Below are positions 6,061 through 44,709 of a stretch of 64,000 bases of DNA, one piece after another. The stretch comes from Clostridia bacterium (lineage in GTDB: Bacteria; Bacillota; Clostridia; Oscillospirales; CAG-272). The stretch is taken from the NCBI GenBank assembly GCA_017410065.1, contig JAFQRL010000032.1, positions 1,027 to 65,026 of the forward strand. The letters run 5' to 3'. How positions within the stretch are numbered: the stretch's first letter is position 1; each line of letters starts with the position of its first letter. The notes beneath the pieces are model-generated. The model did no database searches. It saw only the letters and a program-made list of their open reading frames with translations, and was not told the origin of the DNA. The position numbers and the translations under genes were made by a program.

Positions 6061-6133
6061 TATCGCGGCAAAGCGGCGTTGAATTCAGCAGTTCGCCGGT
6101 CGTACCGACGCTCGGGTCAGGAGAATTCTTAAA

Positions 6134-6253
6134 ATGCTTATAATCAATAAACTAATATCCACCTCCGCGGTAGATTACGCCGCCGAGGAATTGAAAAAAT
6201 ACCTTCGTATGATGATGCCCGAGGGCGGCGACATAAAGATCGCCTCGGTTTAA
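6134..6253 (+). pseudogene. Truncated N-terminal relic of a DUF4838-like paralog (39 codons then TAA)
   Basis: Encodes MLIINKLISTSAVDYAAEELKKYLRMMMPEGGDIKIASV*. It is a nucleotide-level copy of the first ~110 nt of the paralogs. The 5' half is closest to the 1960 copy. The 3' half (atgatgcccgagggcggcgacataaagatc) is identical to the 6343 copy. Confidence 0.8.
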
Positions 6254-6342
6254 GCAAAACAGCGGTATCCCCCTGTGCCGAGCAGTCGGCTTAATAAAAA
6301 ACTAAAATATTAAAAAACACATAAAGAAAGCAGGTAAAGGCA

Positions 6343-12350: not shown

Positions 12351-12734
12351 TTATATCTTCTTGAAGGTTGTGCCGCCCATTTTGAAGCCGCCGTCGATCT
12401 CCTCAAAGGTGAAGGTCTGCGGTCTGCCATCCTTATAATATGCCTGCATAGCCTCAAGGTAATCCTCAAGACCCTCGCCAAGCACCTCGACCTTATCAAC
12501 GGTGAGGGTGATCTTGCCGTTATCAATAAAGTAATCGCAAACAAGCACGAGCTTGCCGTCCGAGTCCTCGATATCCTGGGTCTGTATGATCTGCTCGTAG
12601 GCAACCTCTATGATCTGTCCGTTCTCATCTTGGTATTTTCCAGCGTCAATAAGCGTCTTGCCGCAAGAGGTAAGCCCAAGAATTGCCGCGCAAAGAATAG
12701 CGCAAAGAAGTATTGAAGTTATTATTCTTTTCAT
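12351..12734 (-). CDS. Small lipoprotein, paralog B
   Basis: Signal peptide plus lipobox (LGLTSC). aggag RBS. Same length and the same C-terminal motif (IDGGFKMGGTTFKKI) as paralog A. Confidence 0.8.
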   Translation of the reverse strand: MKRIITSILLCAILCAAILGLTSCGKTLIDAGKYQDENGQIIEVAYEQIIQTQDIEDSDGKLVLVCDYFIDNGKITLTVDKVEVLGEGLEDYLEAMQAYYKDGRPQTFTFEEIDGGFKMGGTTFKKI

Positions 12735-12779
12735 TGTTTTCTCCTAAATATGTTAATTATTGTTTACAGATTTTCTATT

Positions 12780-13703
12780 TTAACCCATCAAAGCCACGAA
12801 GGTGTCTCCGAAGGTAACGAGCACTAAAGCCGCGCACATCACAGCGTATCCAAGAATATTGAGCCTCGTTATCTTCTCCTTCAAGAAGATGAAGGAAAGG
12901 ATCGCGCTCACGATAAGGATACCCGAATTATTAAGAGTGTGAAGGAGGGTTATGTCATTGAGTATTGCTATAACGATAACGAGAAGATTTATCGCAAGAC
13001 CAACGATAACCGAGGTTATAAGCAGGAAGGTTAAGGAAAGCTTATTTTGCCCGAAGCACTTAAGCGAGCCCCGCTCTCTTATAAGTATCATAACGAGAGA
13101 GGCTATTGCCGCGAGGAAATAGGTGATGCACACCATCTCCTCCTTTTCATCAGCCCCCGAAAGTCTTTGCTGAATATCGGTGAGCGCGGCGTATGCACCG
13201 TTACAAAGAGCCAGCCCGATACAGCACGGAATAAATACCTTGAAATTGACCGCGCCCTCGTTTTTGCGGTAGCTTGCAAGATACACGCCGCCGATAACCA
13301 CAGCAACGCCTATCCATTTGAGCCAGGAAAGACCAACGCCGAAGCCGATCAACGCCGCAAGGGTGGGCACCACGATACCGCCCGCGATAGCAAATACCAT
13401 AAGGATGGTGTAGGGTCCCGACTGACTGCACTTGACCATAAAGTAATTATAGCCCGTAATCGCCGCCGCATTCAGCGCGCCGAGAAGCAGAGTGCGCCAT
13501 TCGGCTTCAAAGCGGAAGCCCATAAAGCAAAGAGAAATAAAGGCAACCGTGATACCGCTCACCGCCGTGAAAACAGGCGAGGCAAGACTCGGCTTACCTG
13601 GATAATGGTCGGTATATTTTTTACAGCAGAAGGACTGGAAGGAATAGAGGGTTATCATAAGCCCCATAAGAAGGACCTTCACAATAATCGGAGTTTCGCC
13701 CAT
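12780..13703 (-). CDS. DMT/EamA-like integral membrane transporter
   Basis: 307 aa with about 10 hydrophobic segments in two halves. gggag RBS. Confidence 0.7.
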   Translation of the reverse strand: MGETPIIVKVLLMGLMITLYSFQSFCCKKYTDHYPGKPSLASPVFTAVSGITVAFISLCFMGFRFEAEWRTLLLGALNAAAITGYNYFMVKCSQSGPYTILMVFAIAGGIVVPTLAALIGFGVGLSWLKWIGVAVVIGGVYLASYRKNEGAVNFKVFIPCCIGLALCNGAYAALTDIQQRLSGADEKEEMVCITYFLAAIASLVMILIRERGSLKCFGQNKLSLTFLLITSVIVGLAINLLVIVIAILNDITLLHTLNNSGILIVSAILSFIFLKEKITRLNILGYAVMCAALVLVTFGDTFVALMG

Positions 13704-13873: not shown

Positions 13874-14725
13874 TTGAAGAATATAAAAAGAATAACCGAC
13901 TTTTCAGCCCCCGAGCTCGACGTATTCGTGAGGCTCACAGGTGCCCAGCTCCGCAACAGACTGGAGCCCGAAAAAGGAATATTTATAGCGGAAAGCCCCA
14001 CGGTCATCGAGGTCGCCCTTAACGCAGGGCTTGAGCCCGTGGCATTCCTCACCGACAAGAGGCTTATAAACACCGCCGTCAAAAGCATAATAGAGCGGCT
14101 TTCGGAGTACCCCACGGAGGACGGCTGTGGCGTTCCCATCTACGTTGCCGACCGCGAGGTGCTCACCTCTCTCACAGGCTTTGAGCTCACAAGGGGTGCC
14201 CTCTGCGCTATGCGTCGCCCAAGGCTTCCCTCGGTGGGCGAGCTCTGCCAAGGCGCAAGGCGAGTGGCGGTGCTTGAGGAGGTGGCGGACTCCACCAATA
14301 TCGGTGCGCTCTTTCGCTCCGCCGCCGCCCTCGGGATCGATGCCGTGCTCATCACGCCCACCTGCTGTGATCCTCTTTGCCGCAGAGCCGTGAGAGTCAG
14401 TATGGGAACGGTTTTCCAGGTGCCCTGGGGAAGGATAGGAAGCACCCCCGCAGATTGGCCCGAGCAGGGGATCTCGGAGCTTAAGTCCCTCGGCTTTAAG
14501 ACCGCCGCTATGGCGCTTTCGGATAATTCCGTCAGCATAGACGACCCCGCGCTCCTCGCAGAGCCAAGGCTTGCAATAGTCCTCGGCACAGAGGGCAACG
14601 GCTTGAAAAGCTCCACCATCGCAGATTGCGACTACACCGTGAAGATACCTATGTCCCACGGCGTGGATTCGCTGAACGTTGCCGCCGCAGGTGCCGTCGC
14701 ATTCTGGCAATTAACGAGAAAATAA
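13874..14725 (+). CDS. TrmH/SpoU-family RNA 2'-O-methyltransferase
   Basis: SPOUT motifs: NIGALFRSAAALG, LVLGTEGNG-like IVLGTEGNGL, and SLNVAAAGAVAFW. TTG start with aaggag 7 nt upstream. Confidence 0.85.
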   Translation: MKNIKRITDFSAPELDVFVRLTGAQLRNRLEPEKGIFIAESPTVIEVALNAGLEPVAFLTDKRLINTAVKSIIERLSEYPTEDGCGVPIYVADREVLTSLTGFELTRGALCAMRRPRLPSVGELCQGARRVAVLEEVADSTNIGALFRSAAALGIDAVLITPTCCDPLCRRAVRVSMGTVFQVPWGRIGSTPADWPEQGISELKSLGFKTAAMALSDNSVSIDDPALLAEPRLAIVLGTEGNGLKSSTIADCDYTVKIPMSHGVDSLNVAAAGAVAFWQLTRK

Positions 14726-14752
14726 AAATAACGATAAAAGGAAGTGCTGAAA

Positions 14753-15376
14753 ATGGAAAGCGTTACTATCATTGGCATTGCAGGCGGCTCGGGCAGCGGC
14801 AAGACCACCCTCGCAAGAAACATCGCAAATCACTTCGGAGATAAGATCGCCATTCTGCGCCACGACGATTACTATAAGGAGCATAGCGACCTTCCCTACG
14901 AGGAGCGCAACAAGCTGAATTACGACCATCCCGATGCCTTCGACACACCCCTCTTAATAAAGCATCTGGACGCGCTTCGCCAAGGTCATCCAATAGACTG
15001 CCCAACCTACGATTACACCCAGCACAACCGCTCGGATAAAACACGAAGAATAGAGCCTCGCGCAGTAATTCTTATCGAAGGAATACTTATCCTTTCCGAT
15101 CCGAGAGTCGTTGAAAGGCTGGATATGAAGATATACGTTGACACCGATGCAGACGTTAGAATTATCCGCCGTATAGTCCGCGACACAAAAAAGCGCGGCA
15201 GATCTCTTGAGTCGGTCATATCTCAGTATTTAGACACTGTAAAGCCGATGCACGAGGCTTTCGTTGAGCCGTCGAAAAGGCTTGCGGACATCATTATTCC
15301 CGAGGGCGGAAAGAACCCCGTCGCATACGGAATGATTATCGATAAGATCGAAAAAACTTTAAGTGAGCAAGGATAA
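14753..15376 (+). CDS. udk: Uridine kinase
   Basis: P-loop IGIAGGSGSGKTT followed by DDYYK..NYDHPDAFD, which is characteristic of Udk. ATG 14753 preferred over GTG 14744 because of RBS spacing. Confidence 0.9.
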   Translation: MESVTIIGIAGGSGSGKTTLARNIANHFGDKIAILRHDDYYKEHSDLPYEERNKLNYDHPDAFDTPLLIKHLDALRQGHPIDCPTYDYTQHNRSDKTRRIEPRAVILIEGILILSDPRVVERLDMKIYVDTDADVRIIRRIVRDTKKRGRSLESVISQYLDTVKPMHEAFVEPSKRLADIIIPEGGKNPVAYGMIIDKIEKTLSEQG

Positions 15377-15380
15377 AAAA

Positions 15381-16388
15381 ATGAGCAACAAAAAGAGAAT
15401 AATAACCCCCTTCAGCATAACCCAAAGGACCCTCTCCTCGGGCGAGCGGATCGAGCTTCCCCAAAACACAATAAAGGATAAGACCCGCCTCTCCTTCACC
15501 GCAAGACTTGATAGCCTCGGCGAGGGCAGAATTATAGTCGGCCACGGCTACGATCAGCCAAACGGCGGCTGGATAGAAATAACCGAAAGAGAGGTCTCCG
15601 CCTTTAATTTCTACTCCTGGAAGGACCCAAAAGCCCAGCCGATTGCCGAAAAAACGCAACACGGGCTTGACATATCCGAATTTATCACCGTCATAATCGA
15701 TAAAGACTATCAGCGCGGAGACTACGCAAGAATCACCACAGCGGCAGGCTCCTTCACCTATCCTGTCTCGGGAATCAGCGGCTACGACGGCTCGCCTCTC
15801 GCTATTGCAGACGGCGTCTCTCTTTCGGACTGTATACTGAACTTTACATCCGAAGCCTATGCCGCACCGATATGGCTATACGGCGACTCCTATTTAAATC
15901 ACGCAGACAGCGTCCGCTGGCCCTACTATCTCTATCAGGACGGCTACACCGACGTGCTCCTCGCCGCCTACCCGGGAGAAAACTCCCAAAGAGCCATAAT
16001 CGACTTTGAGCTTGCCGTAACAAGGGGCACTCCCGAATTCGCCCTGTGGCTGCTCGGAATGAACAACGGCGAGGGAGAGTCCGCCGAGCCAAACCCCTAT
16101 TGGCTCGCCGCAACCGAGCGTTTCCTTGCCATCTGCAAGGAAAAGGGCATCACGCCCATCCTCGCAACCATTCCCACCACCCCGAAAATAAACAACGCAC
16201 CCAAAAACGAATGGGTGCGCCGCTCGGGCTACCGCTATATAGATTTCAACCGCGCCGTCGGCGCAGATATCAGCCCAAGCTGGTATAGCGGAATGCTCAG
16301 CGAGGACCAGGTCCACCCCGCCGCCCTCGGCGCCCAAGCCCTCTACGCCCGCGTCCTCACCGACTTCCCCGAAATTATGCGAAGATAA
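15381..16388 (+). CDS. SGNH/GDSL-like hydrolase with an N-terminal extra domain
   Basis: Block I (LYGDSY) and the later GMNNGE and DQVHP blocks fit the SGNH fold. The RBS overlaps the udk stop. Confidence 0.7.
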   Translation: MSNKKRIITPFSITQRTLSSGERIELPQNTIKDKTRLSFTARLDSLGEGRIIVGHGYDQPNGGWIEITEREVSAFNFYSWKDPKAQPIAEKTQHGLDISEFITVIIDKDYQRGDYARITTAAGSFTYPVSGISGYDGSPLAIADGVSLSDCILNFTSEAYAAPIWLYGDSYLNHADSVRWPYYLYQDGYTDVLLAAYPGENSQRAIIDFELAVTRGTPEFALWLLGMNNGEGESAEPNPYWLAATERFLAICKEKGITPILATIPTTPKINNAPKNEWVRRSGYRYIDFNRAVGADISPSWYSGMLSEDQVHPAALGAQALYARVLTDFPEIMRR

Positions 16389-16398
16389 ATCCAAAACC

Positions 16399-16449
16399 AA
16401 AAGCTGCCCTTGATGCCCACAAAGCATTTTCGGCAGCTTTTATTTTTAT
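16399..16449 (+). terminator. Rho-independent terminator of the trmH-udk-SGNH operon
   Basis: AAAAGCTGCC..GGCAGCTTTT stem followed by ATTTTTAT. Confidence 0.75.
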
Positions 16450-16543
16450 AGTGTTCTTCTTTTTTTAATATAGCTTCCTTTTGTAAATATAGTTTTTTAT
16501 AATATAGCTCCTTATAATATACTTTTCCTATTAAAATTATTAT

Positions 16544-16575
16544 AAAAAGTGCGGCCGATTGCTCGACCGCATTTT
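16544..16575. terminator. Duplicate of the PFOR terminator hairpin
   Basis: aaaaaGTGCGGCCGattgctCGACCGCAtttt. The hairpin is identical to 17135-17157. Confidence 0.6.
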
Positions 16576-16608
16576 CGTTTGCTGTTAATTTATACTCTAA
16601 TCGAAGAA

Positions 16609-16766
16609 TTTTTGAGGGAGAATTGTCGCTTTGCGACCGACAGGCGTATACGAATACGTCGAGGTCGCAAAACGACGATAGGTGATATAGCTTTGAAAAG
16701 CCAAAGCCCACGAAAATTCATTTCGGGAATATATCACCGGTCTCACCAAAAATTACCGATTAAAAT
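16609..16766 (+). repeat. Structured intergenic element, copy A (most diverged)
   Basis: Aligns with 36211-36457 and 43602-43767. It keeps all helices through compensatory changes, e.g. GGTGATAT/ATATCACC in place of GGGAAG/CTTCCC. Confidence 0.75.
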
Positions 16767-17114
16767 TATACGTTGTAGAAGTCTACGAGTCTCTTAAGTC
16801 TCTCAAAGCCAACGGCGATCCCCGAGGGTTGCGCCTTGGGCGAGGAGATATTTGATGATGCTTTTTTAAGGAGCGCGCGGCAAAGTACAACTTTGCAAGA
16901 GCGCCTTGGGAAAGCAGCGCAAATATATACCGTTCAAGACGTGACGATCGGGGGTCGCCGTTGGCTCCGCCTTAGCGGTTGCTTCAGCCTTAGCGAAGAG
17001 CTCCTTTGCGCGCTCGGGGTAGCGTAGCGGCGGGGTGGTATTGAATGACAGCCTAAACGGCTGTCAGACCCGCACCGTGACCGAGCCGCAGCGAGACCTG
17101 CTGAGCAAGTCCGG
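16754..17114 (-). pseudogene. Fragmented relic of the PFOR 3' end
   Basis: Segments 16754-16805, 16969-17019 and 17098-17114 match the contiguous real 3' end 17178-17305 with 3, 2 and 1 mismatches. The match includes a stop-codon copy at 16767-16769. The segments are split by 163-bp and 78-bp unrelated inserts. Confidence 0.75.
16807..16966. repeat. 160-bp insert bounded by 18-bp inverted repeats (MITE-like)
   Basis: AGCCAACGGCGATCCCCG (16807-16824) versus the reverse complement of 16949-16966 (AGCCAACGGCGACCCCCG), 17/18 matching. It interrupts the PFOR relic. Confidence 0.55.
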
Positions 17115-17129
17115 AATCCAACATTGATT

Positions 17130-17158
17130 AAAAAGTGCGGCCGATTGCTCGACCGCAC
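17130..17158 (-). terminator. Rho-independent terminator of PFOR
   Basis: The minus strand reads GTGCGGTCGagcaatCGGCCGCAC followed by TTTTT, 32 nt after the stop codon. Confidence 0.75.
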
Positions 17159-17189
17159 CTTTATTTTACCGATTATTTACCGATAAAAA

Positions 17190-20100
17190 TTATACGTTGT
17201 AGAAGTCTACGAGCCTCTTAAGCCTCTCATACTTAGCCTTAGCAGTTGCTTCAGCCTTAGCGAAGAGCTCCTTTGCACGCTCGGGGAACTGCTGAGCAAG
17301 TCTGGTGTATCTAGCCTCGCCTGCGATGAACTCCTGGTAGGAGCCTGTGGGTTCCTTGGAATCGAGAGTGAAGGGGTTCTTGCCCTCTGCCTTAAGAGCG
17401 GGGTTGTATCTGAACATGTTCCAGTAGCCTGCCTCAACAGCCTTCTTCATCTCAGCCTGGCAGTTAGCCATACCGCCCTTGATGGAGTGCATCTCACAAG
17501 GAGCGTAGCCGATTACGAGAGAAGGTCCGGGATATGCCTCAGCCTCTGCAAGAGCCTTAAGGGTCTGGTTCATATCTGCGCCCATAGCGATCTGTGCAAC
17601 GTAAACGTAGCCGTAGGACATTGCGATCTCTGCAAGGTTCTTCTTGCCGATAGCCTTACCTGCTGCCGCGAACTGTGCAACCTGACCGATGTTGGAAGCC
17701 TTGGAAGCCTGTCCACCTGTGTTGGAGTAAACCTCGGTATCGAATACCATAATGTTTACGTCCTCGCCGGAAGCGATAACGTGGTCAAGACCGCCGAAGC
17801 CGATATCGTATGCCCAGCCGTCGCCGCCGAAGATCCAAACAGCCTTCTTGGAGAGGAACTTCTTCTCAGCGAGGATCTTGGGAGCGGTGGGGCAACCTGC
17901 AGCTGCTGCTGCCTCAAGCTCTGCAATAAGAGCCTTGGTTGCGGACTCGTTCTTCGCGCCGTTATCCTTGGTTGCAAGGAACTCAGCTGCTGCCGCCTTG
18001 AAGGACTCGGAAGCCTTCTCGGATGCTGCCATTTCCTCAACCATCTTGATAAGCTTATCGCGGATAGCCTTCTGACCAACGAACATACCGAGACCGTGCT
18101 CTGCGTTATCCTCGAAGAGGGAGTTAGCCCAAGCGGGACCTCTGCCGGACTCCTTGTTTACAGTGTAGGGAGTTGCGGGAGCGGAGCCACCCCAAATGGA
18201 GGAACAGCCTGTTGCGTTGGAGATATACATTCTCTCACCGAAGAGCTGGGTGATAAGACGAGCATAGGAGGTCTCTGCACAGCCTGCGCAAGAGCCCGAA
18301 TACTCAAGGAGAGGCTGCTTGAACTGGCTACCCTTAACGGATACTGCAACAAGCTCTGCCTTCTCGGAAACGTTTGCAACCGCATAGTCGTATGCAGGCT
18401 GCTGATCAAGCTGAGTTGCGATGGGCTTCATCTCGAGTGCGGGAGCCTTACCTGTCTTAGCAGCATTTGCGGTAACAGGGCAAGCCTTAACGCAAAGGGT
18501 ACAACCCATACAGTCAAGAGGAGAAACCGCCATTGTGAACTTGTAGTTGGTCTTAGCAACGGGCTTCTCGGTGAACTTGGTTACTGCGGGAGCTGCCGCA
18601 GCCTCATCCTCGGTCATAGCGAAGGGACGGATGCAGGCGTGAGGACATACGAACGCGCAGTTATTACACTGGATACAGGTCTCGGGATTCCACTGAGGAA
18701 CGGAAACGGCAACGCCGCGCTTCTCATAAGCGGTAGAGCCCTGGGGGAAGGTACCGTCTGCGTACTTAGCGAATGCCGCAACGCCGAGGGAATCACCCTT
18801 CATAGAGTTTACGGGAAGAACGATGTCGTTAACGAAGTCAACGAGATCGGCTCTTGTACCGTTTGCCTTTGCGCGAGGAGCATCAGCACCTGCGTTTGCC
18901 CACTCTGCGGGAACAGCTACAAGGTTAAGAGCATCCTTACCTGCGTCGATAGCCTTGTGGTTGAGGTCAACGATAGCCTGACCCTTCTTGAGGTAGGACT
19001 TGGTTGCCATATACTTCATATAGTCGATCGCTTCGTCGATGGGAAGGATCTTTGCAAGAGTGAAGAATGCAGACTGAAGAACGGTGTTCTTAACCTTTGC
19101 GTTACCGAGGTCGATAGCGATCTTGGTTGCGTTGATGGTGTAGAACTTGATGTTGTTCTTTGCGATATAGGACTTAACCGATGCGGGAATGTGAGCATCG
19201 AGCTCAGCATCGCTCCAAGGACAGTCAAGGAGGAAGGTACCGCCGGGCTTAACGTCGGATATCATATCGTACTTTGTGAGATATGCGTTGTTGTGGCAAG
19301 CAACGAAGTCTGCCTTATTGATATAATAAGAGGACTTGATGGGGCTATCACCGAATCTGAGGTGAGAAATAGTGATACCCGAGGTCTTCTTGGAGTCATA
19401 CTGGAAGTATGCCTGAATGAACTTATCGGTGTGGTCGCCGATGATCTTGATGGAGTTCTTGTTTGCACCAACTGTACCGTCGCCGCCGAGACCCCAGAAC
19501 TTGCACTGGATCATATCGGTGGGTGCGGTGTCGGGAGCAGCCTCCTCAGCAAGAGAAAGACCCATAAGGTCGTCTACGATACCGATAGTGAAGTGATTCT
19601 TCTTCTCGCCTGCCATATTCTTATAAACAGCGAATATGGATGCGGGAGTGGTATCCTTAGAGCCGAGACCGTATCTGCCGCCAAGAACCTTGATGCCGTC
19701 TCTGCCAACCTCGTTGAGGGCGGCGATAACGTCGAGGTAAAGGGGCTCGCCAAGAGAGCCGGGCTCCTTGGTTCTATCAAGAACGGAAACTACCTTTGCG
19801 GTTGCGGGAATAGCCTCGCTGAGCTTGGAAGCAACGAAGGGTCTGTAAAGACGAACCTTAACAAGACCTACCTTCTCGCCCTTTGCGTTGAGGTAATCGA
19901 TAACCTCCTCAGCAACGTCACAAACAGAGCCCATAGCAACGATAACTCTCTCTGCATCGGGTGCACCGTAGTAGTTGAAGAGCTTGTAGTTTGTGCCGAT
20001 CTTTGCGTTGACCTTGTCCATATACTCCTCAACGATAGCGGGAAGTGCCTCGTAGTAGGGGTTGCAAGCCTCTCTGTGCTGGAAGAAGATATCGCCGTTT

Positions 20101-22269: not shown

Positions 22270-22286
22270 TTTCCGTTTTCCTTACC

Positions 22287-22363
22287 TTCCATTTTCAATT
22301 TTCCACTTTCCATTTTCAATTTTCCATTTTCAACTTTCCATTTTCAATTTTCCATTTTCAACT
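22287..22363. repeat. 14-bp tandem repeat (ttccattttcaaNt, about 5.5 units)
   Basis: Units start at 22287, 22308, 22322, 22336 and 22350. The array spans the last codons and the stop (22330-22332) of the AraC gene, and ends 18 nt from the MFS start codon. Confidence 0.9.
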
Positions 22364-23172
22364 TTCAACTTCCTCCACTCTCTCGGCGAGCAGCCTTCCC
22401 TTGCGCGGAAGGCTGTGCCAAAGGCGGATACCGAGCCGAAGCCCGAGGCCTTCGCGATCCTTCCAACCGTCCAATCGGTGGAGGAAAGAAGTCTTTTTGC
22501 CTGCTTCACTCTCAGGGAGGTCAGGTAGCCGAGCACCGTTCTGCCCGTGTATTCCTTGAAAAGTCGGCAGAGATAAAATTCGCTGAGGTAAAACCTCTCG
22601 GAGAGGGAGGTGAGGCTTATCTGCTCGGTATAGTGTGTGTCGATATACTTCAGTATATCCGCAACTCTGTCAAGCGTCGGGGTGGCAACCGTGGTGCGGC
22701 TGGCAATATTTTCGCAAGAGAGAGTCGCATCGAGAAGCCCGAGAACGGCGGCATAGCTGCCAAGCCCCGCGTCCTCTCGCGTGACCCTTCCGATCATTTC
22801 ATCTATAAGCCTCGAAATCCTCTCTCGCGCCTCTCCCTCGGGCCTTGCGATGAAAAGCTCGCAGTCGGGCTCCGCTCCGCAGGGGAAATGTGCGGCAGGA
22901 AGGGTTATAAGCAGTCTCGCGTAACCGCCCCCCGCATCAAGAGTTCGGTGCTCCGTGTCGGGTGCGAGCAAAAAGGCGTCTCCCGCCTTAAGATGATAAA
23001 AGGCGTCCTTAACGAAAAGGTATCTGTCGCCCTCGGTGAGCAGATAAAATTCGTATTTATCGTGAGCCTCACAGCGCGCCATATTGTTGAAGGCTATCCT
23101 CTCATAGCCAACCTTCACGTCGTATCCCTTCTCGGAAAATCCTATAACCGTTTCTCCTCCCCCCTCTCTCAT
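22330..23172 (-). CDS. AraC-family transcriptional regulator (cupin + HTH)
   Basis: N-terminal cupin sensor and C-terminal HTH (YLSEFYLCRLFKEYTGRTVLGYLTSLRVKQAKRLL). Confidence 0.85.
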   Translation of the reverse strand: MREGGGETVIGFSEKGYDVKVGYERIAFNNMARCEAHDKYEFYLLTEGDRYLFVKDAFYHLKAGDAFLLAPDTEHRTLDAGGGYARLLITLPAAHFPCGAEPDCELFIARPEGEARERISRLIDEMIGRVTREDAGLGSYAAVLGLLDATLSCENIASRTTVATPTLDRVADILKYIDTHYTEQISLTSLSERFYLSEFYLCRLFKEYTGRTVLGYLTSLRVKQAKRLLSSTDWTVGRIAKASGFGSVSAFGTAFRAREGCSPREWRKLKVENGKLKMES

Positions 23173-24429: not shown

Positions 24430-24540
24430 TCAAAGCTCGCGAGCGGTGATCCGCCCCTCAAAATCTTCGTTTTTGTAAACAGTTATTTGCATTTATTTAA
24501 ATAATCGCAATGAAGCAACACCGCGTTGAAAGGAAACAAA

Positions 24541-25692
24541 ATGAAAACTCCCGAAACCTCAAAGCATTTTAAAAGAGTTATCGACCCTGTCACAGGCGTA
24601 CCTCACTACGTTCTCGCAACAAGGCTTGCAAAGTATCAGCAGTCCCTCTATTACGTTAACAATCCTATGTCGAGCGACGGCAGATACCTTTGGTTTTGGT
24701 CGGTTATAAATCCCATTTATCCCGACGGCGCAGGAAAGCTTTTGAGCTTTATCGATTTTGAAACCGATGAGATCACCATCTGCTACGACATTCCCTACCA
24801 AAGCGCTCCCTACGTAGATCCCGACGACGGAACCGTCTATTTTATCACGGGCTCTTCCCTCTGCAAAAGAGAGCCGAAAAAGGATAAATTTGCCGAGGTG
24901 GTTTGCCGGATACCCGTGTTCACAAACGGCGGCGGCTACGCCACTCACTTAACGAGAACCCGTGACAAAAACAAATTCTTCCTTGACATAGGAATAAAAT
25001 GTGGCGGCGGAGTTCAAGGACTTCTCGATATACGCGACGGCTCATTTACAGAGTGGTGCAGAACCGAGCGTCCCCACAATCACGGTCAGCTAAACCCGCA
25101 AAACGATGACCTTGCGCTGATGGCGTACGACTCCTTTGCAAACGCTGACGGCACAAAAAATCGCATTCCCTACGACGAGAACGGAATTTATCAAAGACTT
25201 TGGACTCTCACCTCTGACGGCAAACGCAAAATGTGGCCACCGAAAAATAACTATGCCACACACGAATGGTGGTCGGCAGACGGAAAGACAATCTACTATT
25301 GCTCCGACTATTACGGCATCTATGGTATCGACATTGAGACAGGCGAGGACATAACAATCCTTGAAGGTATTGACCCCTGGCACGCATACAGCACGAAAGA
25401 CGACTCCCTCTTCATCTGGGACGAAAAGAAGCTCGAGCGCTACGGCGGCAAATGGTACAGAGGTTGCCCCTCGGCTCTCAATTTCTTTAACAGAACCACG
25501 GGCAAAAATCTCGTCGTTATTTCCGAAATGCCCGAAAACGGCCACACCCCCGAAAACCAAAATTCCTACCACATCGATCCCCACCCACGCTTTACCGAAA
25601 ACGAAAAATACGCCATCTTTACCACCACCGAGCTCGGCGGCGTTGATCTCGGTGTCGTAGTTGTTGACGAGCTTGTGGAGCTTACTAAGTAA
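24541..25692 (+). CDS. PL22-like oligogalacturonate-lyase-family protein, paralog 1
   Basis: About 383 aa, beta-propeller-like. HEWWSADGK and YHIDPHPRF..FTTTELGG resemble Ogl HEFW and HPHPSF..FTSD. Start at ATG 24541 to match the paralog N-termini (MKTPETSKHF). Confidence 0.7.
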   Translation: MKTPETSKHFKRVIDPVTGVPHYVLATRLAKYQQSLYYVNNPMSSDGRYLWFWSVINPIYPDGAGKLLSFIDFETDEITICYDIPYQSAPYVDPDDGTVYFITGSSLCKREPKKDKFAEVVCRIPVFTNGGGYATHLTRTRDKNKFFLDIGIKCGGGVQGLLDIRDGSFTEWCRTERPHNHGQLNPQNDDLALMAYDSFANADGTKNRIPYDENGIYQRLWTLTSDGKRKMWPPKNNYATHEWWSADGKTIYYCSDYYGIYGIDIETGEDITILEGIDPWHAYSTKDDSLFIWDEKKLERYGGKWYRGCPSALNFFNRTTGKNLVVISEMPENGHTPENQNSYHIDPHPRFTENEKYAIFTTTELGGVDLGVVVVDELVELTK

Positions 25693-25776
25693 TAACGCAT
25701 CATTCGCTTTCGCAAAAAGGCACATATTGAACGGAGAGCATCGCATCCGGACATTTATATTCAGGAGCATAAACCG

Positions 25777-26478
25777 ATGAACACCAGCGTTTTTTTATCT
25801 AACGAAATTTGTCAATCGGGCAAGCACGTTCTTCTATCGTCTGCCGAAGCAGGCGCGACCTTCCGCCTTTATAGCCTGCCAAAAGGTAAGTGCGCAATCT
25901 CGGACTGCAACGGAGAAAACGTCAGAATTTTCATTTTGCTTGAAGGATCTTTAAAAATCGGAGAGCTTATGCTCGGCGAAAGAGGAATACTCACCGTCAT
26001 AAAAACGGAAAGCATTCAAATAGCCGCGCTTAGCGATTCAAGACTGCTTGAGATCAGCCTCAAAAAAACAGCCGATGCGTGCAGTATTTCGTCCCCGAAC
26101 CCTCTTCTCTACCGCTTAGCTCCCAAATACAGAGAAGATTGCAAGAGCGAAAAAACCGTCAGCCGTATGCTCCTGCAAAGCGGCGTTATTCCGGGAATAG
26201 CGATAGGAAGCGTTGAAACACACGGCAAGGATACCGTTGCGGCACACTGCCACCCCGATTGCGACCAATTTTTCTTTTCCTTTGCCGAAAACGATATGTC
26301 GGTAATAATCGACGCTGACACAGTACCGATGAAGGGCGAGAGGCTTTTGCACATTCCTTTAGGAAGCACACACGGCGTTGAGGTTTGCGACGGCGGCTGC
26401 GCCCATTACCTTTGGATCGATTTTATATTAAACGAGCAGGGCGCCGAATATATGGACTCCGCCCACGAATTTATATAA
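25777..26478 (+). CDS. Cupin-domain protein
   Basis: AAHCHPDCDQFFFS..HIPLGSTHGVE is a cupin metal-binding pattern. aggag RBS. Confidence 0.6.
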   Translation: MNTSVFLSNEICQSGKHVLLSSAEAGATFRLYSLPKGKCAISDCNGENVRIFILLEGSLKIGELMLGERGILTVIKTESIQIAALSDSRLLEISLKKTADACSISSPNPLLYRLAPKYREDCKSEKTVSRMLLQSGVIPGIAIGSVETHGKDTVAAHCHPDCDQFFFSFAENDMSVIIDADTVPMKGERLLHIPLGSTHGVEVCDGGCAHYLWIDFILNEQGAEYMDSAHEFI

Positions 26479-26560
26479 TTGCAAAGCGAAAGTCCCTCAT
26501 CACCCACCATAATATTCAGTTTCTGCTTAATATCAACATTAATAATAGGAGAAATGCTCA

Positions 26561-27712
26561 ATGAAAACCGTTAAAACCTCAAGGCTGTTCGAAAGAAAGC
26601 AAGACAAGATAAGCGGCGTTCCCTACTACGTCCTAACGGAAAAGAAATGCGCCTATCAGCAAGGCTTCTATTTTGTAAATAATTCCATAACGCTCGATGG
26701 CAGGTATCTGTGGTTCTATACAGCCGAAAGCCCCGTTTACGATGCATCTTTAAGAAATATGGGCTACGTTGACTTCCTTACCGACGAGGTCGTGATCTGC
26801 CACGATATAATCATAGACGATACCTCTCCGTACGTAGATCCCCAAACCGGAACGGTCTATTACACCAAGGGCGCGTCCGTCTATATGCGCGAGCCCGGCA
26901 AGAACAAAGCGGCAAAAAAGCTTTGCACAGTACCGTTTGGCGGATATATACGGACAATAGCCAGCCACCTGACGCCCCTGTCGGACGGCAAGAGCTTTTT
27001 ACTTGACATTCAGCGCTATAACTTCGGTAACATTCAGGGAACTATCAATATCGAAACGGGTGAGTTCACCGAATGGTCACGCTGTGATCATCAAACGGGG
27101 CACGGTCAGATCAACCCCAAAAACGACGCCCTCGGGCTTTTCGCCTATGAGTCGCACGTGGATCTTGCGACAGGCAAAAAGGTCTTCGGCGTTCCTATAG
27201 ACGAAAACGGAGTTTATCAAAGGCTTTGGACTATTACGGCAGACGGCGTCCGCACCTGCTACCCTGCAAGAGATAATTACGCCTCACACGAATGGTGGTC
27301 GGCAGACGGAAAGAAAATATTCTACGTCAACGATTTCGGAATACAGCGTCTTGACCTGACAACCGGCGAGCATATCTGCGTTCACGAATGCTACCCCTGG
27401 CACGCTCATACGACAAAGGACGAAAATTATTATGTTTTCGACGAGAAGGTTCTTGATCGCTACGATGGAAAATGGTTCAGAGGCTGTCCTGCCGCGGTCA
27501 AATTTTATAACCGCATAACGAATAAGGAAATTGCCATCGTCACTGAAATGCCCGAAAACGGATTCTCCCCAAGCAACCAATGCACGTACCACATCGACCC
27601 GCATCCTCGATTTACCGATGACGAAAAATACATAGTTTTCACAACCACAGAGCTTGGCGGTGTTGATCTGGCTGTTGCCGTAGTTGACGAGCTTGTGGAG
27701 CTTACAAAGTAA
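26561..27712 (+). CDS. PL22-like protein, paralog 2
   Basis: 383 aa, collinear with paralogs 1, 3 and 4. Identical C-terminal tail VVDELVELTK as paralog 1. Confidence 0.7.
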   Translation: MKTVKTSRLFERKQDKISGVPYYVLTEKKCAYQQGFYFVNNSITLDGRYLWFYTAESPVYDASLRNMGYVDFLTDEVVICHDIIIDDTSPYVDPQTGTVYYTKGASVYMREPGKNKAAKKLCTVPFGGYIRTIASHLTPLSDGKSFLLDIQRYNFGNIQGTINIETGEFTEWSRCDHQTGHGQINPKNDALGLFAYESHVDLATGKKVFGVPIDENGVYQRLWTITADGVRTCYPARDNYASHEWWSADGKKIFYVNDFGIQRLDLTTGEHICVHECYPWHAHTTKDENYYVFDEKVLDRYDGKWFRGCPAAVKFYNRITNKEIAIVTEMPENGFSPSNQCTYHIDPHPRFTDDEKYIVFTTTELGGVDLAVAVVDELVELTK

Positions 27713-27830
27713 AGCGTAGCCAAAGCCAAAAGAGGCGGAAGATTTGCGCCAAATCCATAAAAATTCAATGATGAACCCACAAAACACCCAAAAACTATAA
27801 CTTTTTTCATATAAATCAGGAGAAAACCGA

Positions 27831-28991
27831 ATGAAAACACCAATGACCTCGAAGCATTTCACAAAAGTCGTTGACCCCAAAACGGGTATACCCCACTACG
27901 TTCTCGCAACAAGGCTTGCAAAGTATCAGCAGGGCTTCTACTTCGTGAATAATTCTATGACGCGTGACGGCAGATATCTTTGGTTTTACGCCGTGCCCGC
28001 ACCTGTCTACGACACTATGAGCCGCAATATGGGCTACGTTGACTTCCTCACCGACGAGGTGGTAATATGCTACGACGTACTCTTTGACGATGCCACACCC
28101 TTTGTCGACCCTGACACAGGCGACGTTTACTTCACCCACAAAAAGGGTATCTACAAGCGCGAGCCGAAAAAGGATGCGACCGCCGTGAAGCTCTGCACCG
28201 TGAATATCCCGGGGCACGTGAACAAGCTTGCCACTCATCTCACGAGATGCTCCGATAAATCCCGCTTCTTCCTTGATATAAACAGGGGCGACTTCGGCTG
28301 TATTCAGGGCACCGTCAATATTGAAACAGGCGAATTCACCGAATGGAGCCGCGCGCCGCTTGGCGTTAATATGAACCACGGACAAATAAACCCAAGTAAC
28401 GACCGCCTTGCCCTCTGCGCCTACGACGGATGGTCAAGCCTTGAAAGCGGTGAACATCACCGCATCCCCTATGACGAAAACGGCGTTTATCAAAGGCTTT
28501 GGACGCTCACCGCAGACGGAGGTCGCAAAATGCACCCAGCAATGCACAACTACGCCACCCACGAATGGTGGTCGGGTGACGGCAAAAAGATCTATTATTG
28601 CTGTGACGGGTACGGCATCTACGGCATCGATCTTGAAACAGGCGAGGATATCACCATCCTTGAGGGCGTTGACCCTTGGCACGCTCACTCCACAAGAGAC
28701 GACTCCTATTTCATCTATGATGAAAAGAAGCTTGAACGCTACGGCGGCAAGTGGTACAGAGGCTGTCCCGCCGCCCTGAATTTCCTAAACAGAAAAACAG
28801 GAAAGCACCTTGTGGTTATCTCCGAGATGCCCGAGAACGGCTTCACTCCGGAAAATCAGACGGCTTACCACATCGACCCTCACCCGAGATTTTCCGAAAA
28901 CGAAAAATACGTTATATTCTCAACCTCCGAGCTTGGCGGTTGTGATCTTGCGATAGCATCGGTTGAGGAGCTCATAAAGCTCACGAGCTAA
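27831..28991 (+). CDS. PL22-like protein, paralog 3
   Basis: 386 aa with the same motif set. aggag RBS. Confidence 0.7.
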   Translation: MKTPMTSKHFTKVVDPKTGIPHYVLATRLAKYQQGFYFVNNSMTRDGRYLWFYAVPAPVYDTMSRNMGYVDFLTDEVVICYDVLFDDATPFVDPDTGDVYFTHKKGIYKREPKKDATAVKLCTVNIPGHVNKLATHLTRCSDKSRFFLDINRGDFGCIQGTVNIETGEFTEWSRAPLGVNMNHGQINPSNDRLALCAYDGWSSLESGEHHRIPYDENGVYQRLWTLTADGGRKMHPAMHNYATHEWWSGDGKKIYYCCDGYGIYGIDLETGEDITILEGVDPWHAHSTRDDSYFIYDEKKLERYGGKWYRGCPAALNFLNRKTGKHLVVISEMPENGFTPENQTAYHIDPHPRFSENEKYVIFSTSELGGCDLAIASVEELIKLTS

Positions 28992-29026
28992 ACCGTCCAA
29001 AACGTTGAAAAAGAAGGCAGAATTTT

Positions 29027-30175
29027 ATGAAAACCCCAGAAACATCAAGGCTTTTTAAAAGGGTCACAGACCCCAAAACAGGCGTGCCTCACTACGTGCT
29101 CACCGAAAGGGCTTGCGAATATCAGCAAGGCTTCTACTTCGTGAATAATTCTATGACGCGTGACGGCAGATACCTTTGGTTCTACGCTACGGCGGCACCC
29201 GTTTATCACGATATGTATAGAAATCTTGGCTACGTTGACTTTCTCACCGACGAGATAGTTATCTGCTACGACGCCCTCTTTCACGCCGCCACCCCATATA
29301 TCGATCCCGACACAGGCACGGCGTATTTCACCAACGACAAGACCCTCTATAAAAGAGAGCCGGGCAAGGATAAAAAGGCCGAAAAGCTCTGCTACGTCAA
29401 CATTCCGGGCTACGTCACCTGCCTTGCCACCCACCTGACGCGCCTTTCGGATAAGGAAAGCTTTTTCCTTGATATCCGCCGCGCCGACTTCGGCGGCATA
29501 CAGGGAGTTGTGAACGTGAAGGACGGCTCATTCACCGAATGGAGACGTGATGAGCAGCCCATAAACCACGGTCAGATAAACCCTGTCAACGATAGCCTTG
29601 CACTTTGCGCCTATGATTCCGCGGGAAGCCTTAAGGACGGAAAAAATCTGCGCGTCCCATACGATGAGGCAGGCGTTTATAAAAGGCTCTGCACGGTGAC
29701 ATCGAGCGGCAACAAGACCGACTATGCCCCGAGAAACAACTACGCTACCCACGAATGGTGGTCTGCCGACGGCAAAAAAATCTACTACGTGAACGACCTG
29801 GGTATTCAACGCCTGGATCTCACCACAGGCGAGCATATCTGCATCCACGAGTGCAAGCCCTGGCACGCCCACACCACATCCGACGAAAAATATTACGTTT
29901 ACGACGAAAAGGTTCTGGATAGATACGGCGGCAGATGGTTTCGCGGTTGCCCTGCGGCGGTTAAATTCTACAACCGCGAGACCGACAGGGAGATCACCGT
30001 TGTCACCGAGATGCCCGAGAACAAAAACAGTCCCGAAAGGCAAAACTACTACCACATCGACCCCCACCCGAGGTTTTCGGAAAACGAAAAATACGTTATT
30101 TTCTCAACCACCGAGCTTGGCGGATGCGACCTTGCGGTGGCATCGGTGGAGGAGCTGGTCTCGCTAACGAAATAA
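29027..30175 (+). CDS. PL22-like protein, paralog 4
   Basis: 382 aa with the same motif set. Followed by the hairpin GAGAATAAGCCG..CGGTTTATTCTC. Confidence 0.7.
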   Translation: MKTPETSRLFKRVTDPKTGVPHYVLTERACEYQQGFYFVNNSMTRDGRYLWFYATAAPVYHDMYRNLGYVDFLTDEIVICYDALFHAATPYIDPDTGTAYFTNDKTLYKREPGKDKKAEKLCYVNIPGYVTCLATHLTRLSDKESFFLDIRRADFGGIQGVVNVKDGSFTEWRRDEQPINHGQINPVNDSLALCAYDSAGSLKDGKNLRVPYDEAGVYKRLCTVTSSGNKTDYAPRNNYATHEWWSADGKKIYYVNDLGIQRLDLTTGEHICIHECKPWHAHTTSDEKYYVYDEKVLDRYGGRWFRGCPAAVKFYNRETDREITVVTEMPENKNSPERQNYYHIDPHPRFSENEKYVIFSTTELGGCDLAVASVEELVSLTK

Positions 30176-36022: not shown

Positions 36023-36043
36023 GAAGCTTAAAACCAAATAATA

Positions 36044-36093
36044 AAAGGCTTGCCAAGGTATCAAAACGATATCAAAGCAAGCCTTTGTTTTTT
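36044..36093. terminator. Bidirectional rho-independent terminator
   Basis: AAAGGCTTGC..GCAAGCCTTT stem with an upstream A-tract and downstream GTTTTTT. Near-identical copy at 43467-43516. Confidence 0.75.
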
Positions 36094-36100
36094 ATGTTTT

Positions 36101-36177
36101 TATAAAACAGCATAAATGCTGTGCGTATATTGCTCGGCGGCGTTAGGGGTTGCCGCCGTTTGCTTTGCAAACCGCAA
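36101..36177. repeat. 77-bp hairpin-rich repeat, copy 1
   Basis: tataaaacagcataaatgctgtgcgtatattgctcggcggcgt..gcaaaccgcaa. Repeated exactly 160 bp downstream with about 4 differences. Confidence 0.85.
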
Positions 36178-36210
36178 AATTACCGCCGTATAAAACCAAA
36201 CTTAACACCT

Positions 36211-36457
36211 TTTTCGAGGGATTTTTGGATGAGGAGCTTTGATTAACGACCGACAGGCAGTATATAACAGCATAAATGCTGTGCGTATATTGCTCGGCGG
36301 CGTAAGGGGTTGCCGCCGTTTGCTCCGCAAACCGCAATAGTACGCAATACGTCGAGGTCGTTAAACGAAGCTAAGGAATACCGCTCTGAAAATTCACAGC
36401 CTACGAAAACTTATTTCGGGAATAACATTCCTGTCCTCGCCAAAAAGCACCGAAAAA
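36211..36457 (+). repeat. Structured intergenic element, copy B (interrupted by a 77-bp repeat)
   Basis: Same order of helices as copies A and C. The apical part of the second helix is split by the insertion 36261-36337. Ends 4 nt before the rhaD stop codon. Confidence 0.8.
36261..36337. repeat. 77-bp hairpin-rich repeat, copy 2 (nested inside element copy B)
   Basis: Near-identical to 36101-36177. Flanked by agta..agta. Confidence 0.85.
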
Positions 36458-36461
36458 TCAC

Positions 36462-37274
36462 CTAGTCCAGATATTCCTTGCGATAATCCAGCCCAAATAC
36501 TCCCGCCAGCTCCTTAAGCTGCTCGTCGGTGATGCCGTTCTTGATGCCTGCGTTTACGGAAAGCATATAGAGCTGTGCCGCCTTCTCAACGGTCTCGATA
36601 AGACCGAACGCCTCGTCAAGGTCCTTACCAACGCCGTAGATGCCGTGAGCCGCCCAAAGGCAAATCCTCTCCTTCTTAAGCTTCTCTGCGGTAGCCTCGC
36701 CGATCTCGTTGGTGCCGCAAGCCATCCAAGGAAGAACTGCAACGCCCTCGGGGAAAACGACGATGGACTCGGTCTGCATCTGCCAGAGAGTTCTGGTAAT
36801 AGCTCTCTCGGAAAGATCGTGAATAAGAGTCATCGCGATAGTGTTGGTGGGGTGAGTGTGCATAACGACTCTGTGACTCGGGTCGATAGCAAGTCTTGTG
36901 ATGTGAGAAAGAAGGTGCGCGGGAAGCTCGGAGGTGGGTCTGCCGCCGTCGGTGTAGCCCCAAAGAAGCTTTGCGGTCCTGCCGTCCTCGCCGATCTTGA
37001 TGATACCGAGGTTGTGGGCGGGATCATACTGCACGTTCTTGAAATACTTGCCCGTTCCCGTTACAAGGAAGATCTTTCCAACGATCGCAGATGCGTCGAA
37101 GGTCATAGGAATGTCGCGGATAACACAGCTTGTGTCAAGATACTGCGAAACCTCCTCCTCGTCAAGAAGAACGGAAAGGTTGCCGCCGTTTCTCTCGTCC
37201 CAACCGAGTCTGTAAAGGTTGGTGAGCGTTCTCACCGTCTCCACCATAAAAGGTGCTTCAAGAATATTTTTCAT
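36462..37274 (-). CDS. rhaD: L-rhamnulose-1-phosphate aldolase
   Basis: LGWDERNGGNLSV, TGTGKYFKNVQ and SELPAHLLSH are collinear with E. coli RhaD. Start at ATG 37274 (ggag RBS). Confidence 0.9.
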   Translation of the reverse strand: MKNILEAPFMVETVRTLTNLYRLGWDERNGGNLSVLLDEEEVSQYLDTSCVIRDIPMTFDASAIVGKIFLVTGTGKYFKNVQYDPAHNLGIIKIGEDGRTAKLLWGYTDGGRPTSELPAHLLSHITRLAIDPSHRVVMHTHPTNTIAMTLIHDLSERAITRTLWQMQTESIVVFPEGVAVLPWMACGTNEIGEATAEKLKKERICLWAAHGIYGVGKDLDEAFGLIETVEKAAQLYMLSVNAGIKNGITDEQLKELAGVFGLDYRKEYLD

Positions 37275-43339: not shown

Positions 43340-43466
43340 TAAAAATCCATAGCATACCAAAAATTCATATCATACCAAAATCCAAATCACACACAAGGCA
43401 AGAATGCCCGCCCCAAAATCGCAAAACGCCCGCGTTTTGTAAACAACAATTAACAAAACATAACAA

Positions 43467-43516
43467 AAAGGCTCGCCGAGATATCAAAGCGATATCAAAG
43501 CAAGCCTTTGTTTTTT
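43467..43516. terminator. Bidirectional rho-independent terminator (copy of 36044-36093)
   Basis: AAAGGCTCGC..GCAAGCCTTT followed by GTTTTTT. One C/A mismatch on the + strand becomes a G-U pair on the - strand. Confidence 0.7.
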
Positions 43517-43601
43517 ATGTTTTTCAAGCACCGAAAAGCTTTAATTTCTTCCGAATTCGGAGCAAAAATCGCCGAATTTCCTTAACCAACTCTCTCCCCG
43601 A

Positions 43602-43767
43602 TTTTCGAGGGATTTTTGGATGAGAAGCTTTGATTGGCGACCGATAATCGTATACGAATACGATGAGGTCGTCAAACGAAGCTAGGGAAGATAGCATTGA
43701 GAAAACACAGCCTACGAAAACTCATTTCGGGTAAAACCTTCCCGGTCTCGCCAAAAAGCACCGAAAA
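43602..43767 (+). repeat. Structured intergenic element, copy C (uninterrupted reference copy)
   Basis: 166 nt. Nested helices TTTTCGAGG/TCTCG..AAAA, GGCGACC/GGTCGTC, ATCGTA/TACGAT, GGGAAG/CTTCCC and CGAAA/TTTCG. Ends at the base before the metA stop codon. Confidence 0.8.
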
Positions 43768-44709
43768 TCAATCGGTGGGTTCGGGGCGAAGCTCCGCTAT
43801 CTCACTAATCTCATACGGCGTCGCCTGATATACAAAGTAGTTCAGCCAGTTTGTGAAAAGCAGAGTTGCGTGTCCGCGCCACCTTATAAGGGGCTCCTTG
43901 GTGTCGTCGTCGTTCGGGAAATAATTTTCGGGGATCTTCGGGTTGATGCCCGCCTTTTTATCCCTTGTGTATTCCTTATTAAGAGTGTCCTTATCGTACT
44001 CCGAATGACCCGTGAGGAATATCTGTCTGCCGTGCTTTGTAGATATGGCGTAAACACCCGCCTTCTCGGAGGAGGATAGGATCCTTAACTCGGGCACAGC
44101 CTCAACGTCCTCGCGAAGGACCGTGGTGTATCTTGAATGGGGAACGTAGAAAATATCGTCGAAGCCGCGGAAAAGGATCGATCTCTTATAGTCCACGACG
44201 TGCTCGTAAACGCCCGAAAGCTTTTCATCCATCAGCACCTTATCAACGCCGAAGTGATAATAAAGCCCCGCCTGCGCGCCCCAGCAAATATGCAGAGTGC
44301 TCTGCACGTGAGACTTGGACCACTCCATTATCTCGCAAAGCTCCGCCCAATAGTCAACCTCCTCAAAAGCCATCTTCTCAACAGGCGCACCTGTGATGAT
44401 CATTCCGTCAAAGTATCTGTCCTTAATCTCGGCGAAGGTCTTATAGAAGGCGAGAAGATGCTCCTCGGAGGTGTTCTTGGATTTATGAGTCTCGGTGTGA
44501 ATAAGCTCGATCTCCACCTGCAAGGGCGTGTTACCGAGCAGGCGCGAAAGCTGTGTCTCGGTGTCCACCTTCGTGGGCATAAGATTAAGAATAAGTATCT
44601 TCAAGGGACGGATATCCTGAGTTATTGCTCGGGTCTCCGTCATAACGAAGATGTTTTCCTCCTCAAGTATTCTCACCGCAGGAAGCTCGTTTGGTATTTT
44701 GATCGGCAT
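43768..44709 (-). CDS. metA: Homoserine O-acyltransferase
   Basis: [41 protein letters not shown] is collinear with E. coli MetA. Confidence 0.92.

Follow-up and report, generated by a model that had tools for sequence, protein, structure and literature searches.

What preserves one elaborate fold beside unrelated genes is the question raised by a unit of ~168 nt that recurs, next to core metabolic genes that lie tens of kilobases apart, in a 64-kb stretch of DNA from a Clostridia bacterium (the whole stretch is referred to here as the window). An earlier note, made from the sequence alone, had proposed an undescribed structured RNA or single-stranded DNA element.

Copies and fold of the unit

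An nhmmer profile of three copies matched the window at 43592–43774 (E 7.5e-61), at 16591–16774 (8e-56) and at 36201–36258 plus 36337–36467, with no other convincing match in the 64 kb. Together with a covariance model, it bears out the three copies described in the earlier note (C, A and B), all of which lie on the + strand and share a pairwise identity of 74–85%. The units, including those found elsewhere, are 118–170 nt long, contain no ORF and occupy at least seven independent sites. In the features that follow, the borders of A, B and C are the limits given by the covariance model (cmsearch), and fold energies are + strand MFE values.

16549 to 16580, − strand: intrinsic terminator past copy A in the gene sense.
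16598 to 16765, + strand: copy A, the subtype with TAATCG...CGATTA termini, followed by the relic PFOR 3′ end (cmsearch 174.5 bits; fold −67 kcal/mol, z −9.6).
16766 to 16810, − strand: relic duplicate of the last ~14 PFOR codons plus stop (ERLKRLVDFYNV, then the stop), from sequence and ORF translation; the intact gene ends at 17190.
17155 to 17189, − strand: fragment resembling the element start (TTTTTATCGGTAAATAATCGGTAAAA), directly after the true PFOR stop and followed by the duplicated terminator, from sequence.
36043 to 36103, no strand given: repeated bidirectional terminator R3 near copy B, from sequence and strain alignment.
36101 to 36198, + strand: free R2 copy between terminator R3 and copy B, from sequence, strain alignment and repeat search.
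36211 to 36264, + strand: 5′ part of copy B, up to the arm-1 apical loop GTATA, from nhmmer and the covariance model.
36265 to 36345, + strand: nested R2 copy within the arm-1 apical loop of copy B (repeat family D18, 93% identical to 36101–36183; strain alignment).
36346 to 36459, + strand: 3′ part of copy B, from the covariance model, with the rhaD stop TAG at 36462–36464.
43462 to 43520, no strand given: repeated bidirectional terminator R3 near copy C, beyond the element in the metA sense, from sequence.
43527 to 43598, + strand: debris of related elements (CACCGAAAAG..., GGAGCAAAAATCGCCGAATTTCC) between terminator and copy C.
43602 to 43770, + strand: copy C, full length (169 model positions; cmsearch 196 bits; fold −64 kcal/mol, z −6.1).
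43768 to 43770, − strand: metA stop codon TGA, adjoined by copy C.

Since the terminator at 16549–16580 lies beyond copy A, that copy is inside a 3′ UTR. Copy B, which spans 36211–36459 overall, is split by the 81-nt second repeat R2; the interruption suspected earlier is thus real, and the insert is a copy of the neighboring repeat at 36101–36183. The bidirectional terminator said to be shared by B and C exists as well (about 36043–36103 and 43462–43520). This R3 is a near-identical unit of ~55 nt (GGCT[C/T]GCC..ATATCAAAGCAAGCC plus A- and T-runs) that follows two + strand genes unrelated to each other, and it therefore behaves as a third repeat family. The debris at 43527–43598 resembles a subfamily of short variants present on contigs L003 and L121.

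The unit has a Y-shaped three-way-junction fold in which a long closing helix carries two arms. The closing helix is an imperfect terminal inverted repeat of ~27 nt, GATTTTCG-N5-TTTTTGG-N2-GAGA, present at both ends, and the element termini read TTTTCGG... and ...CCGAAAA; in copy C the repeat (GATTTTCG...CGAAAATC) overlaps the complement of the metA TGA. Arms 1 and 2 show no sequence relationship; the apex of arm 1 (GTATAYGAATAC) is invariant, and arm 2 encloses a CGAAA-N5-TTTCG hairpin. Covariation was evaluated on an alignment (A3) of ten distinct full-length copies, three from the window and seven from other contigs. The + strand consensus comprises 56 pairs with 97.1% of cells paired, and 16 of these pairs (44 cells) carry double compensatory changes, a level reached by 0 of 500 shuffles (slid controls were 34–50% paired), with only about 14 copies of the family available, many of them related by descent or conversion. 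Every helix listed in the earlier note was recovered by RNAalifold, and the covariation it claimed is borne out: the fold is kept across diverged subtypes through compensatory substitutions. However, the mirror structure on the − strand comes close to this (53 pairs, of which 15 have double changes; 96.8% paired), and thus covariation proves a selected fold and not a strand or a molecule; the alifold energy is nearly equal between the strands (−43.5 on + vs −42.9 on −). Compensatory changes alone cannot tell selection on RNA, on single-stranded DNA and on a cruciform apart, and their abundance in a multicopy family is not enough to identify an RNA gene.

The element had not been recognized as any named RNA family, and the Rfam check agrees. 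Rfam 15 at gathering score gave no match in the whole window, and searches up to E 10 over copies C and A gave chance matches only; nor was a tRNA or tmRNA found. A hammerhead-like core, considered on account of the motif GGATGAG, was rejected because the junction of the fold leaves just 0, 1 and 2 nucleotides unpaired.

Junctions with stop codons and the better-folding strand

Read in the sense of the adjoining gene, every full-length copy starts 0–7 nt past the stop codon and lies upstream of that gene's terminator. At metA, the TGA (43768–43770) runs directly into TTTTCGG, 0 nt from copy C; at rhaD in the window, the TAG (36462–36464) stands 4 nt before the T-run (TAG-gtga-TTTTT); and the TAA of the PFOR relic (16766–16768) is 3 nt past the terminal inverted repeat of copy A. 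The abutment reported for these three stops is correct. On other contigs the rhaD junction is TAA directly followed by TTTTTT (L004), TAA-ta (L002) or TGA-tc (L127), while in L010 the PFOR gene is intact and its TAA falls inside the element's terminal repeat. Further hosts whose stops are abutted are an ACT-domain gene (L011) and two 669-aa paralogues (L121). Read in gene sense, the left flank mostly consists of T(G/A)A and a subsequent T-run, with CCTCC or CTGTT in short variants, and no direct repeat that would represent a target-site duplication was present at any of 15 aligned junctions. In absolute terms, the seven complete units found in ~100 kb of chromosome all point the same way; the sole inverted piece is a 45-nt fragment after pyrD, which also follows a stop codon. 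At metA itself, the last codons (CACCGATTGA) pair with the first element bases TTCGGTG, followed by CTTTTTGG (window 43759–43777, − strand), and this pairing makes a hairpin that resembles an intrinsic terminator and overlaps the stop codon.

Such positions might be expected of a host-selected 3′-UTR module, read with the upstream mRNA (on the window − strand), that stabilizes or processes the transcript or modulates termination and that spread by duplication and gene conversion, not by transposition. It would account for the common orientation of all full-length copies to the upstream gene, between stop and terminator, and is compatible with a − sense fold that still reaches −44 to −66 kcal/mol, with the terminator-like hairpin formed by the last metA codons and the element start, and with segmental duplication that moves gene 3′ ends along with the element (seen for the PFOR relic and for the two 669-aa paralogues). 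We nevertheless consider this explanation improbable, given that the − strand folds worse, that the genes served are functionally unrelated, that short variants lie upstream of start codons and point the other way, that a sister lineage manages at the same genes without the element, and that copies in a decayed or partial state are tolerated.

The + strand, antisense to the gene whose 3′ UTR holds a full-length copy, is the one to which the strand-specific evidence leans. Of 14 copies, 12 have the lower MFE on +, by a margin of 1–13 kcal/mol, and DNA folding parameters again favor + (−38 vs −28 kcal/mol). In the mirrored helices, 33 G–T cells at 12 positions are set against 4 A–C cells on the + strand, as the earlier note had sensed; its statement that all non-Watson–Crick pairs are G–T on + is overstated, since the − strand has 23 G–U cells of its own at helix extensions. 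GC skew is negative throughout the window, and a third-codon-position decomposition assigns a component of −0.12 to replication, which together give the + strand a lagging-strand composition. Mutation bias, whether linked to transcription or to replication, was rejected as the source of the + strand G–T excess because the expected deamination bias favors A–C, the opposite direction.

Small RNAs made from the + strand, either cis-antisense or trans-acting, would be transcribed convergently to the 3′ end of the neighboring gene and would use the Y fold as a functional scaffold. The MFE difference and the ratio of 33 G–U to 4 A–C cells speak for them, as do unpaired + strand positions that are 50% A, which is typical for structured RNAs, and a G–U asymmetry opposed to the expected mutational bias on a strand of lagging, C-rich composition. 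Moreover, the short variants run in the same direction as pyr genes, so that their + sense form is certainly transcribed. Such RNAs are still an unlikely explanation of the family as a whole. The element has no conserved + strand promoter in front of it, scans upstream giving only weak, nonconserved 9-of-12 matches, and at site A and in L010 a gap of only 18–30 nt separates it from the terminator hairpin, which leaves no room for a promoter there. In L121 the elements lie between co-directional minus-strand genes, and the + sense 3′ end is not followed by a terminator. Fragments, mosaics, nested insertions and a species-restricted range are atypical for RNA genes, and the − strand has its own G–U pairs and an equal alifold energy. 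Thus, of the claim that + is the folded strand, a somewhat better fold on + stands, whereas covariation chooses no strand.

Distribution, exchange and interpretation

The metA product is seen on metagenome contigs from several gut samples, and its nearest relatives among the GTDB representatives, with ≤85% identity, come from animal-gut MAGs of uncultured Eubacteriales/Oscillospiraceae. Exact-protein look-ups of two genes beside site A found nothing on record. An IUPAC pattern of the conserved blocks, GGTCGNNAAACGA-N24-44-ACGAAAANNNATTTCG, had 0 matches in 185,579 GTDB species representatives (Bacillus included). A looser pattern matched 30 JGI metagenome contigs, with true copies only in L010 and L011, and gave 3 matches in the viral collection, all by chance; BLASTN against plasmid and phage collections gave none, and nhmmer and the covariance model gave 0 matches in the 1.25 Mb that surround metA in 80 related species. 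In those 80 GTDB relatives the regions downstream of metA are not syntenic with the window, and they therefore offer no empty-site comparison. One was supplied by a sister lineage reached through protein homologues, as MetA homologues at 89–94% identity led to sister-lineage contigs. The lineage with 89% MetA identity (L129–L131) is syntenic (metA, araC-type regulator, rhaB, rhaA, rhaD) and has no element at the metA or the rhaD site: behind its metA TGA come TTTTTGGGTTTTACG and, within 116 bp, a terminator, and behind its rhaD TGA comes TTGCTTTATC. In the lineages at 91% and 94%, diverged copies adjoin the rhaD and metA stops. The range of the family is limited to a few strains or species that are close relatives, and in its behavior it resembles a young family of structured repeat DNA of the bcr1, BOX or REP sort.

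Filled and empty lineages also show what the element does to its host genes. MetA ends in ...EPTD at the stop in both, and every filled strain has RhaD ending in ...EYLD, whether the stop is TAG, TAA or TGA. The genes are therefore neither truncated nor given a stop by the element, and its role as a donor of stop codons or of altered C-termini was rejected, the C-termini being the same with and without it.

Chance similarity or an assembly artefact has next to no probability. Contigs do break at these repeats, L126 ending at site A, but the same copies were recovered from independent assemblies of at least eight samples, with E-values down to 1e-61, which refutes such an origin.

Turnover of copies (gain, loss and exchange) is visible already between strains and sister species, and copies recombine with one another into mosaics. 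The metA-site copy of L003 and L004 is the type that the window carries at rhaD, and the rhaD-site copy of L004 is largely the window's metA type, with a recombinant A–C mismatch. The R2 insertion in copy B is missing from the orthologous copy of L002 and L004. Other irregular forms are terminal duplications of 20 nt, 5′ fragments and 3′ halves that stand alone, and partial copies in tandem. Site A lies within a segmental duplication, in which the PFOR relic (16766–16810) adjoins copy A, while the intact PFOR stop (17190) is followed only by the piece of ~30 nt resembling the element start and by the duplicated terminator; one further strain carries other sequence in place of the 5′ half of copy A and has R2 in the same loop. 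That loop, the arm-1 apical loop, has been entered between GTATA and CGAATAC four times by other repeats: by R2 in copy B of the window, in site A of L126 and in L132, and by a different tandem repeat of ~125 nt in L127. Short variants (118 and 132 nt) inside the pyr operon of L003 have the common closing-helix termini and arm-1 apex with other interiors; they are co-directional with the pyr genes, and each ends just before a Shine–Dalgarno sequence and start codon.

Several observations on neighboring repeats belong beside these. The R2 family (~85–100 nt, with hairpins CAGCAT..ATGCTG and CGGCGGC..GCCGCCG) occurs at window 36101–36198 and 36265–36345, at L126 15640–15720 and at L132 1720–1810; the nested copy is polymorphic between strains, and the free copy is bracketed on both sides by TATAAAAC. 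Behind PFOR, the segmental duplication covers ~420 bp (16766–17190), with relic PFOR 3′ pieces at about 16770–16810 and 16985–17040 and a doubled terminator (16549–16580 vs about 17120–17150), and its unit is repeated once more in another strain, where the contig ends. The ~125-nt repeat of L127 (GTTCTTGCGAGAGCGCCGATGCTCGGCGGCACTGCG...GGTTATA; 16276–16636) forms a tandem of two or more copies, with a gap in the assembly, and is inserted into the rhaD-site element of that sister lineage at the arm-1 loop; downstream of this rhaD-site repeat cluster, at 17100–17180, are tandem repeats of ~16 nt (AATCAACTTTTTAAATC / AATCAATTTTTCAAATC). In L003, short variants and tandem fragments at 12627–13000 and 14619–14910 fill the intergenic regions of the pyrD, pyrF, pyrE, pyrB operon. 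Elsewhere in the window, 1–8301 and 24526–30175 hold two tandem arrays of four paralogous genes each, one encoding DUF4838-family proteins of ~650 aa and the other ~385-aa proteins without a Pfam match, beside glycoside hydrolases. A tandem repeat with a 14-nt period (TTTCCATTTTCAAY; 22284–22385) separates genes for an MFS transporter and an AraC-type regulator, and a motif of ~31 nt, ATTTGCAAAYA-N4-TTTGCATTTTT, stands at five intergenic places (24471, 32794, 39394, 54129 and 58903), where it may be a common operator or promoter element.

Collectively, restriction to a species cluster, empty orthologous sites, mosaics, fragments, nested insertions, subfamilies with shared termini and unrelated neighboring genes indicate a repeat family, not an RNA gene. 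We assign a probability of about 0.7 to the reading that the element represents a lineage-specific, noncoding and nonautonomous interspersed repeat family, MITE/REP-like in kind, of an uncultured gut Oscillospiraceae/Eubacteriales bacterium, which has probably spread by mobility or conversion. What the earlier note had seen is real: the element is strongly structured and covarying, is absent from Rfam, abuts stop codons and folds somewhat better on +. A dedicated structured RNA gene, in contrast, is not supported, in view of a narrow family with empty sister sites, mosaic and fragment copies, nested repeats, variant orientation and no conserved + promoter. The note had also named a transposase-linked MITE family as an explanation that would refute it; no transposase link was found, and Pfam lists for the window and ~250 kb of same-species DNA revealed neither an autonomous parent element nor a transposase.

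As an interspersed repeat, the element would keep its fold because a trans-acting recombinase or transposase, or the copying itself, recognizes a folded single strand or a cruciform, with the window + strand as the better-folding strand in such recognition. Insertion would be directed to the T-rich sequence immediately past stop codons. From its position, the element would be cotranscribed in antisense within the 3′ UTR, and this antisense form (−44 to −66 kcal/mol) would probably serve as a 3′-exonuclease barrier or a processing site, by analogy with REP, BOX and ERIC.

Besides the missing target-site duplications, the missing parent element and the small set of available, often related copies, two features go against this reading. 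Exact abutment to stop codons is untypical of classical MITEs, and the better-folding + strand with its A-rich loops is antisense and of lagging composition, unlike a simple 3′-UTR passenger or an IS200/IS605 top strand. Stop abutment, missing target duplications and the antisense-strand preference fit no standard mechanism, and they thus leave room for a new homing mechanism or a + strand RNA function. We regard as speculative and rather unlikely the idea of a mobile unit, folded in a strand-specific manner, that inserts as single-stranded DNA or by way of an RNA intermediate at the first nucleotides past the stop, and whose arm-1 loop (GTATAYGAATAC) is a landing pad for at least two repeat families. 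A possible route would be priming by the A-run 3′ end, ...CCGAAAA(A), on the post-stop T-run, as in target-primed reverse transcription. If this homing and landing-pad idea were true, it would describe an ecosystem of layered repeats that target hairpins, in a lineage of gut Clostridia. More generally, if confirmed genome-wide, the combination of stop abutment, an antisense-strand fold and a reused hairpin loop could mean site-specific, single-strand-dependent mobility in Firmicutes.

The interspersed repeat described here thus provides a well-covarying structured example from the poorly studied, uncultured gut Oscillospiraceae. Repeats of this kind break metagenome assemblies, as at site A, where a contig ends, and they remodel the 3′ UTRs of central metabolic genes, namely PFOR, metA, the rhamnose operon and the pyr operon.

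Comparison with known systems

Systems whose folded single strands recombine share some traits with the present repeat. Like IS200/IS605 PATEs and attC sites, it folds asymmetrically between strands, lacks target duplications and keeps to one direction along the chromosome (7 of 7 complete copies in ~100 kb), and like attC it stands directly past an ORF, the recombining strand of attC being antisense to the ORF. Unlike PATEs, it has no similar left and right subterminal hairpins, its ends are inverted repeats and no TnpA is nearby; its better-folding strand has lagging-strand composition, the opposite of what IS200/IS605 would lead one to expect; and it has neither the RYYYAAC/GTTRRRY core of attC nor a cassette array or integrase nearby. 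PATEs are further marked by a conserved tetra- or pentanucleotide 5′ of the left end, where the present element mostly has T(G/A)A and a T-run. An attC site, a retron, a DGR, a group II intron and a TnpB omega-RNA were all rejected, as the core motifs are absent, no RT, integrase or TnpB gene is adjacent and the left flanks are inconsistent.

Classical MITEs (Correia/NEMIS, RUP, ERIC, Nezha) resemble it in being small and present in many copies, with terminal inverted repeats, subfamilies that have common termini and different interiors, presence/absence polymorphism and stable RNA folds. They differ in that the present element has no target-site duplication or identified parent IS and in that its insertion point is tied to stop codons, not to a short target such as TA.

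The REP/BIME sequences of Enterobacteria and Pseudomonas are thought to be mobilized as folded single strands by RAYT; they stabilize upstream mRNA, and IS elements such as IS1397 insert into their loops. The present element is likewise an extragenic palindrome in 3′ UTRs between stop and terminator, with mosaics and loop insertions, but no RAYT gene was seen beside it. It is a 168-nt three-way junction of 42–46% G+C, whereas REP sequences are simple G+C-rich hairpins of 20–40 nt with a GTAG or CGTC head (PMC3733652), heads that the element lacks.

Judged by analogy, the closest described architecture is that of bcr1 from the Bacillus cereus group. This ~155-bp repeat is cruciform-like, with two stem-loops whose structure is kept by compensatory changes, and is both transcribed and mobile (PMC3184786; for bcr1 and the bcr group A repeats, Okstad 2004, Klevan 2007 and Kristoffersen 2011, via PMC3184786). 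The likeness is one of description and not of sequence alignment, a relationship in sequence not being expected, and direct repeats of 5 bp flank bcr1, whereas the present element has none. Moreover, the present element belongs to a Clostridia MAG lineage and bcr1 is restricted to the B. cereus group, and only the former abuts stop codons and hosts other repeats; inverted repeats that overlap gene 3′ ends are on record in other bacteria (PMC2775950). Yet both are Firmicute intergenic repeats of ~155–170 nt in which a closing stem with two stem-loops is accompanied by compensatory changes, and both are lineage-specific, with a distribution that differs between close strains; cotranscription with neighboring genes, as for bcr1, would be a further common trait. 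Lineage-specific structured intergenic repeats were already known as a class, and what is new here is this repeat family.
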